From: Escherichia coli
Lineage (GTDB): Bacteria; Pseudomonadota; Gammaproteobacteria; Enterobacterales; Enterobacteriaceae
Direction: 5' to 3' (one strand)
Length of the DNA stretch: 64,000 nucleotides
Assembly: GCF_003334785.1 (NCBI RefSeq)
Contig: NZ_QOWV01000002.1
Below, piece after piece: positions 36,699 through 36,857 of this stretch (its first letter is position 1; each line of letters begins with the position of its first letter). Under the pieces are notes generated by a model, which worked only from the letters and a program-made list of their open reading frames with translations, ran no database searches and had not been told where the DNA came from. The position numbers and the translations under genes were made by a program.

Positions 36699-36857
36699 GT
36701 GAAAGATATTTTATTTTCTTCCGGCGTTGGTTTTGGTATTGGTGCTTTGTTTACAATCGTGCGCTTGCCTATTCCTGTACCAAATGTATTACCGGGTATA
36801 TTATCCATTGTGTTTATGTATGTCGGATATCTGGTGGTGAAATACTTTATGCCATGA
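36699..36857 (+). CDS. Small hydrophobic XapX-like membrane protein (52 aa, GTG start); not in the supplied ORF track
   Basis: Uninterrupted frame read by eye: V/M-KDILFSSGVGFGIGALFTIVRLPIPVPNVLPGILSIVFMYVGYLVVKYFMP-stop; sits in the xapB-xapR intergenic region; start codon uncertain. Confidence 0.45.
   Translation: MKDILFSSGVGFGIGALFTIVRLPIPVPNVLPGILSIVFMYVGYLVVKYFMP

Follow-up and report, generated by a model that had tools for sequence, protein, structure and literature searches.

A conserved 52-codon gene of the XapX family between xapB and xapR in Escherichia coli

Does the spacer between xapB and xapR in Escherichia coli hold a gene and, if so, what might its product do? We addressed this question in a 64,000-nucleotide stretch of E. 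coli DNA, hereafter the window, to which positions refer unless another record is named. The cluster starts with xapA, encoding xanthosine phosphorylase (34497..35330, plus strand), and continues with xapB, encoding a xanthosine/H+ symporter of the MFS (35390..36646, plus strand; present as an ORF and in RefSeq), and with xapR, encoding a LysR-type activator (36898..37782, plus strand); yfeN, encoding a Tsx/OmpK-family nucleoside channel (33484..34248, minus strand), is transcribed divergently from xapA and, in most genera, shares synteny with the cluster. The spacer measures 251 bp between the xapB stop codon (36644-36646) and the annotated xapR ATG (36898). A first-pass annotation had reported a 52-codon frame with a GTG start and two sequence motifs in this spacer, and all of these were present: xapX (36699..36857, plus strand) lies directly 3' of xapB on the same strand, 52 nt downstream, opens with GTG, ends with TGA after 52 codons and is followed after 40 nt by the xapR start. 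Its translation, MKDILFSSGVGFGIGALFTIVRLPIPVPNVLPGILSIVFMYVGYLVVKYFMP (52 aa), carries GVGFGIGALF as residues 9-18 and ILSIVFMYVGYLVV as residues 34-47, and a Shine-Dalgarno-like AAGG (36688..36691, plus strand), read from the sequence and putatively functional, is found 7 nt 5' of the GTG.

The length of this frame is no proof of a gene and is not beyond chance, since 723 of 5000 dinucleotide-preserving shuffles of the spacer (14.5%) contained a complete ORF of 52 codons or more. Because length is not significant alone, the case for xapX as a gene rests on comparative evidence. We scanned one genome per species for orthologues and found xapX in Escherichia sp., Pseudocitrobacter, Entomohabitans, Phytobacter, two Chimaeribacter species, Citrobacter and Pragia. 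The frame was intact and exactly 52 codons long in every orthologous locus (9/9, from at least seven genera), with GTG or ATG as the start at the same position and, ~4–10 nt 5' of it, a purine-rich motif, AAGG, AGGAGG or GGAG (9/9), so that the conservation expected by the first-pass annotation was borne out. Within Escherichia all changes were synonymous, 7 relative to a UPEC strain and 10 relative to Escherichia sp. Against other genera dN/dS was 0.04–0.125, giving an overall range of 0–0.125, well under the value of 1 that had been set as a bound; variable columns fell 20/10/45 on codon positions 1/2/3 of 51 codons, and pN of xapX was in the range of that of xapA, xapB and xapR in the same genome pairs. 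These substitution patterns indicate that xapX encodes a protein under purifying selection. Two overlapping frames, a 37-aa ORF in the +3 frame (36727..36840) and an antisense 38-aa ORF (36692..36808), were considered and rejected, since substitutions follow frame 1 and stops appear in both in other genera.

We found that XapX matches the NCBIfam model TIGR03510, named 'XapX', with 64.2 bits (E 5.8e-18; curated cutoff 27.8), with residues 4-50 aligned to positions 2-48 of the 49-position profile, confirming the proposal that the frame encodes a XapX-like protein. Score, a length of ~50 aa, two hydrophobic helices with a [KR]LP[IV]PxP loop between them, and a position between xapB and xapR all place it with the TIGR03510 XapX domain proteins, from which it shows no difference. 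The first-pass annotation had named the expected family 'XapX/DUF1427', and of these two names only XapX was confirmed directly: a search of Pfam-A with E. coli XapX gave no match even at E<=10, PF07235 (DUF1427) included. PF07235 was matched at E<=0.001 by 22 of 50 XapX relatives, in one of which the alignment covers model positions 3-41 of 84. Since relatives align only to its first half, we equate the XapX domain with that part of the DUF1427 model. DUF1427 proteins are ~80–93 aa long with a C-terminal tail, like the product of the first gene in the tandem pairs described below, and E. coli XapX is shorter. PHROGs and PADLOC gave no family match for XapX, and a literature search on 'XapX' and 'DUF1427' returned no functional study.

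XapX is already known as a catalogued family member that pipelines annotate in thousands of genomes, and is ordinary as a finding. The entries for it are RefSeq WP_000651752.1 and UniRef J7QTV3_ECOLX; PGAP places a CDS for WP_000651752.1 at matching coordinates in two annotated loci (L001 and L002), and a strain with 94% DNA identity encodes the same protein. Among 5426 complete E. coli genomes, the ORF was present at >=80% coverage in 4066 (~75%), and each of 59 evenly spaced full-length matches was annotated as a CDS (59/59). The window carries the commonest E. coli allele, and an identical protein is listed for at least 1000 public contigs, named either 'DUF1427 family protein' or 'XapX domain'. 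The former is the product name that PGAP gives to E. coli XapX, and it is looser than what is verified for this protein. In the MG1655 record NC_000913.3, there is no CDS between xapR (b2405) and xapB (b2406); tblastn found the ORF intact there, at 2522518..2522676 on the minus strand (coordinates mapped from xapB), and PGAP-annotated assemblies derived from MG1655 do include the CDS. As separate observations, 1345 of the 5426 genomes (about a quarter) gave no megablast match to the xapB-xapX-xapR junction, and in one strain (L020) a resistance island with IS1, catA and Tn3-like elements abuts xapR, with the upstream genes replaced.

The suggestion that the frame encodes a small membrane protein is in line with a strongly hydrophobic composition (GRAVY 1.31) and a predicted two-helix hairpin. 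An AlphaFold2 model built on a 50-sequence alignment forms a helix-loop-helix hairpin (pLDDT 93.7), in which predicted helix 1 (residues 2-20; 36702..36758, plus strand) bears a glycine-zipper-like G9-x-G11-x-G13-x-G15, a proline-rich non-helical loop follows (residues 21-30, VRLPIPVPNV; 36759..36788, plus strand), and predicted helix 2 spans residues 31-50 (36789..36848, plus strand). In the 50-member family alignment G43 is invariant and G11, G15, P24, P26 and P28 are nearly so; the loop signature of the family is [KR]LP[IV]PAP, and the whole-family signature reads G-x3-G-x2-F ... [KR]LP[IV]PAP ... G-x2-G-I-x-G-x3-G. Among enterobacterial orthologues, R22 to P32 is invariant apart from positions 27 and 29, and helix 2 carries SIVFMY in this subfamily versus GIVGxY in most relatives. 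Because Lys and Arg are richer in the N and C tails (2.1 per protein) than in the loop (0.66), the residue counts weakly favour a topology with both ends in the cytoplasm. Foldseek found no match to the model in the PDB, and a profile search of PDB sequences returned only syndecan-2 (E 0.37), a chance match. Taking conservation, family membership and hydrophobicity together, xapX is almost certainly a real, selected membrane-protein gene of the XapX family.

How is this gene placed with respect to its neighbours? xapX follows xapB directly in 11 of 11 enterobacterial loci examined, which span eight genera. In Pragia fontium the gene order is xapA-xapB-xapX-deoC-xapR; the interposed deoC (L011 6179-6950; TIGR00126, 220 bits) encodes deoxyribose-phosphate aldolase, and its position argues that xapX is tied to the transport and catabolic genes and not to the regulator. 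The spacing between xapX and xapR is 40–51 nt in Escherichia, Pseudocitrobacter, Phytobacter and Citrobacter and 111–119 nt in Chimaeribacter and Entomohabitans. As judged from gene order, the enterobacterial xanthosine cluster, yfeN / xapA-xapB-xapX-(deoC)-xapR, has xapX as a constant member.

A stem-loop separates xapX from xapB. It was recovered by a terminator scan and by folding (36655..36687, plus strand; 9-bp stem, 5-nt loop, then TTTTATGATA), begins directly after the xapB stop and ends 12 nt before the xapX start; it is terminator-like and probably leaky. A stable hairpin was found at this site in 9 of 10 genus-level loci, with completely different sequences, Entomohabitans being the locus that has none, and a good T-tract follows it only in Escherichia, Pseudocitrobacter and Phytobacter. 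In a B2-like E. coli strain the stem is preserved through G-U pairs. Because the gap from the hairpin to the GTG is too short for a promoter, we infer that xapX is translated from transcripts that cross the hairpin; these would come from read-through from the xanthosine-induced xapA promoter or from a start within the 3' end of xapB, where a promoter-like site is found (36575-36604). A second promoter-like site (36854-36882) was not relied on, as its start would fall in the Shine-Dalgarno region of xapR and the site is unconserved outside Escherichia. No terminator-like site was detected in the gap between xapX and xapR.

Published genomic SELEX data assign a peak of RpoN holoenzyme to the spacer of xapR and xapB (position 2,520,564 in that study) and another to the region between xapB and xapA (PMC8743547). 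Reading the xapX sequence by eye, we saw no canonical GG-N10-GC sigma-54 motif. Among Ribo-seq and transcript studies, the supplements of Hücker 2017, SMRT-Cappable-seq and the Stringer 2021 preprint mention neither xapR nor xapB, nor does the text of the Weaver preprint; in these sources and the literature searched we found no experiment, Ribo-seq, transcript or interaction record of XapX.

Outside the enterobacterial xanthosine cluster, the genomic company of the family differs. A profile search of 1.84 billion representative proteins returned 75 XapX relatives at E<=0.001, mostly 48–93 aa long, and the TIGR03510 cutoff was passed by all nine relatives tested (9/9). One relative follows an FMN reductase gene with overlapping stop and start, another adjoins a gene for a CsoR-like repressor and a third adjoins a phosphoribosyltransferase gene. 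Tandem paralogous pairs were found in Syntrophorhabdaceae, in Candidimonas and on a metagenome contig (L012 5688-6138, L013 13-462 and L023 151-657), each consisting of a longer DUF1427-like gene (81–93 aa) and then a shorter gene (53–76 aa, depending on the start chosen), with a gene for FmdA_AmdA (acetamidase/formamidase) directly after the pair in two of the three cases (L012 and L023). A tblastn search with a DUF1427-like relative gave no match in plasmids. Viral contigs of IMG/VR were searched with the pattern [KR]LP[ILV]PAP[PAT][VA][LF], which was seeded by a narrower alignment than the 50-member one and gave at least 600 matches, 585 of them confirmed. In 75 viral loci, a XapX-domain gene of 51–53 aa is found amid genes for a UvsX-like recombinase, a Cas4-like exonuclease, Holliday-junction resolvases (RuvC-like and others) and SSB, and lysis genes or endolysins were not recurrent neighbours in these loci. 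PHROGs v4 contained no family for the viral genes, and the frequency with which the domain turns up in phage replication modules is a small, so far unexplained lead.

What might XapX do in the xanthosine cluster? Our preferred explanation, held tentatively, is that XapX assists the xanthosine permease XapB as an accessory protein of the inner membrane. It would be translated from its own Shine-Dalgarno site, on transcripts supplied by xanthosine-induced xapAB read-through past the leaky stem-loop, by a transcript continuing into xapR, or by both, and would insert in the inner membrane with both ends cytoplasmic. There it might pack through its small-residue, glycine-zipper faces against XapB and, as a non-catalytic accessory, adjust the stability, assembly or activity of the permease, by analogy with other bacterial small membrane proteins. 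We favour this reading because adjacency to xapB is invariant across eight genera, because that adjacency is kept where deoC stands before xapR, and because helix 2 is subfamily-specific; the enterobacterial signature SIVFMY is compatible with adaptation to a specific partner. The support for a possible physical association of XapB with XapX comes from synteny. Counting against an accessory of XapB, relatives stand beside unrelated genes with no MFS permease nearby. The occurrence of the domain in viral replication and recombination modules further implies that it is not a dedicated XapB subunit in general, and, with the terminator-like hairpin between the two genes, XapB and XapX might be produced in unequal amounts.

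Several small proteins of the inner membrane bind a transporter and tune it; examples are AcrZ with AcrB, KdpF with KdpABC, MgtS with MgtA and PitA, and CydX with CydAB. XapX is like them in size class, in hydrophobicity and in having its gene beside or inside a transporter operon. Unlike XapX with its two predicted helices, most of these proteins have a single helix, and they bear no sequence relationship to it. Binding to a partner, proposed here for XapX, is established for this class. Relatives of XapX also occur without a nearby transporter.

A different reading of the same features, which we regard as doubtful but a serious contender, is that XapX acts autonomously as a homo-oligomeric membrane element, for instance a hairpin dimer forming a four-helix bundle that would serve as a small pore, a solute leak or a membrane organiser, its placement in the xap cluster reflecting co-regulation or hitch-hiking and no binding to XapB. 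The many unrelated genomic contexts of the domain, including at least 585 viral stretches, speak for such an element, the tandem paralogous genes suggest that the working unit is a pair of hairpins, and glycine-zipper faces are found on both helices, with G11, G15 and G43 conserved family-wide. Strict adjacency to xapB across eight genera and the subfamily-specific helix 2 argue against it, as does the lack of a match to any solved channel or pore structure in the Foldseek and PDB-sequence searches.

The peptide might also be incidental, and the translation of xapX itself what counts: as a leader or upstream ORF, the frame would determine how strongly xapR is expressed from constitutive or read-through transcripts. 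A stop codon only 40 nt from the xapR start, a gap free of terminator-like sites and the short spacing kept in four genera would suit this arrangement. Purifying selection at the amino-acid level is nevertheless as strong as in xapA, xapB and xapR, the family occurs far from any xapR, deoC intervenes in Pragia and the spacer widens in Chimaeribacter and Entomohabitans, making a leader function very unlikely.

We consider it similarly improbable that XapX is a holin-like or type I toxin-like peptide that damages membranes. XapX resembles class II (two-helix) phage holins in being a small, hydrophobic protein with two helices (~50–70 aa in that class), its family is common in phage contigs, and a few relatives have weak Pfam matches to the LydA holin family (1/50 at E<=0.001) and to SpoVAB. 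However, neither PHROGs nor PADLOC places XapX in a holin or other family, in phages the gene is found in modules for replication and recombination and not in lysis cassettes, and xapX is stably retained in a catabolic cluster. An Rfam scan of the whole window found nothing at the xapX locus, which leaves a type I toxin reading without an antisense sRNA there and gives no support for an antisense or structured-RNA reading of the locus. Least probable of all, a chance ORF with no product in an AT-rich spacer, for which the shuffles and the missing CDS in NC_000913.3 might be cited, is effectively refuted by the match to TIGR03510, conservation of length and start, the distribution of changes over codon positions, dN/dS and the stops that alternative frames gain in relatives.

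Returning to the preferred reading of XapX as a XapB accessory, if XapX does modulate XapB it would be one more small protein that tunes a transporter. A broader proposal, which we judge unlikely, is that XapX is a third functional component of xanthosine uptake, a subunit or modulator of XapB omitted by current models of the xap switch, and that the XapX domain is a widespread two-helix membrane module recruited repeatedly beside genes of nucleoside, nucleotide or DNA metabolism and found in bacteria of many kinds and on hundreds of contigs of aquatic phages. The practical value of the finding is modest. MG1655, the best-curated bacterial reference record, is without a CDS for a gene selected as strongly as its well-studied neighbours. 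Most small-protein screens stop at 50 aa, a ceiling that XapX, at 52 aa, just exceeds, and expression of the xap genes must be induced with xanthosine. Neither quantitative models of the xapABR circuit nor its knockouts (ΔxapAB, ΔxapABR) take xapX into account, and such deletions may remove or disturb it.

A few further observations were made in the window. The xapR frame already runs open from an earlier ATG (36883; MEHLIMERVY...), which lies five codons 5' of the annotated start at 36898, and a GGAG at 36886-36889 fits the annotated start. Between xapR and gltX, the window has only tRNA-Lys(UUU) and one tRNA-Val(UAC) (37891-38045), and a single tRNA-Ala(GGC) is found at 40745-40820; the K-12 counterparts are the arrays valU-valX-valY-lysV and alaX-alaW, and the difference is copy-number variation of tRNA arrays. 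A PGAP-annotated K-12 relative lists an 'RtT sRNA' beside lysV. On the minus strand, 20764-20806 matches the Rfam sRNA ES036 (CssrF) with 40.9 bits, just above the gathering score of 37.6.
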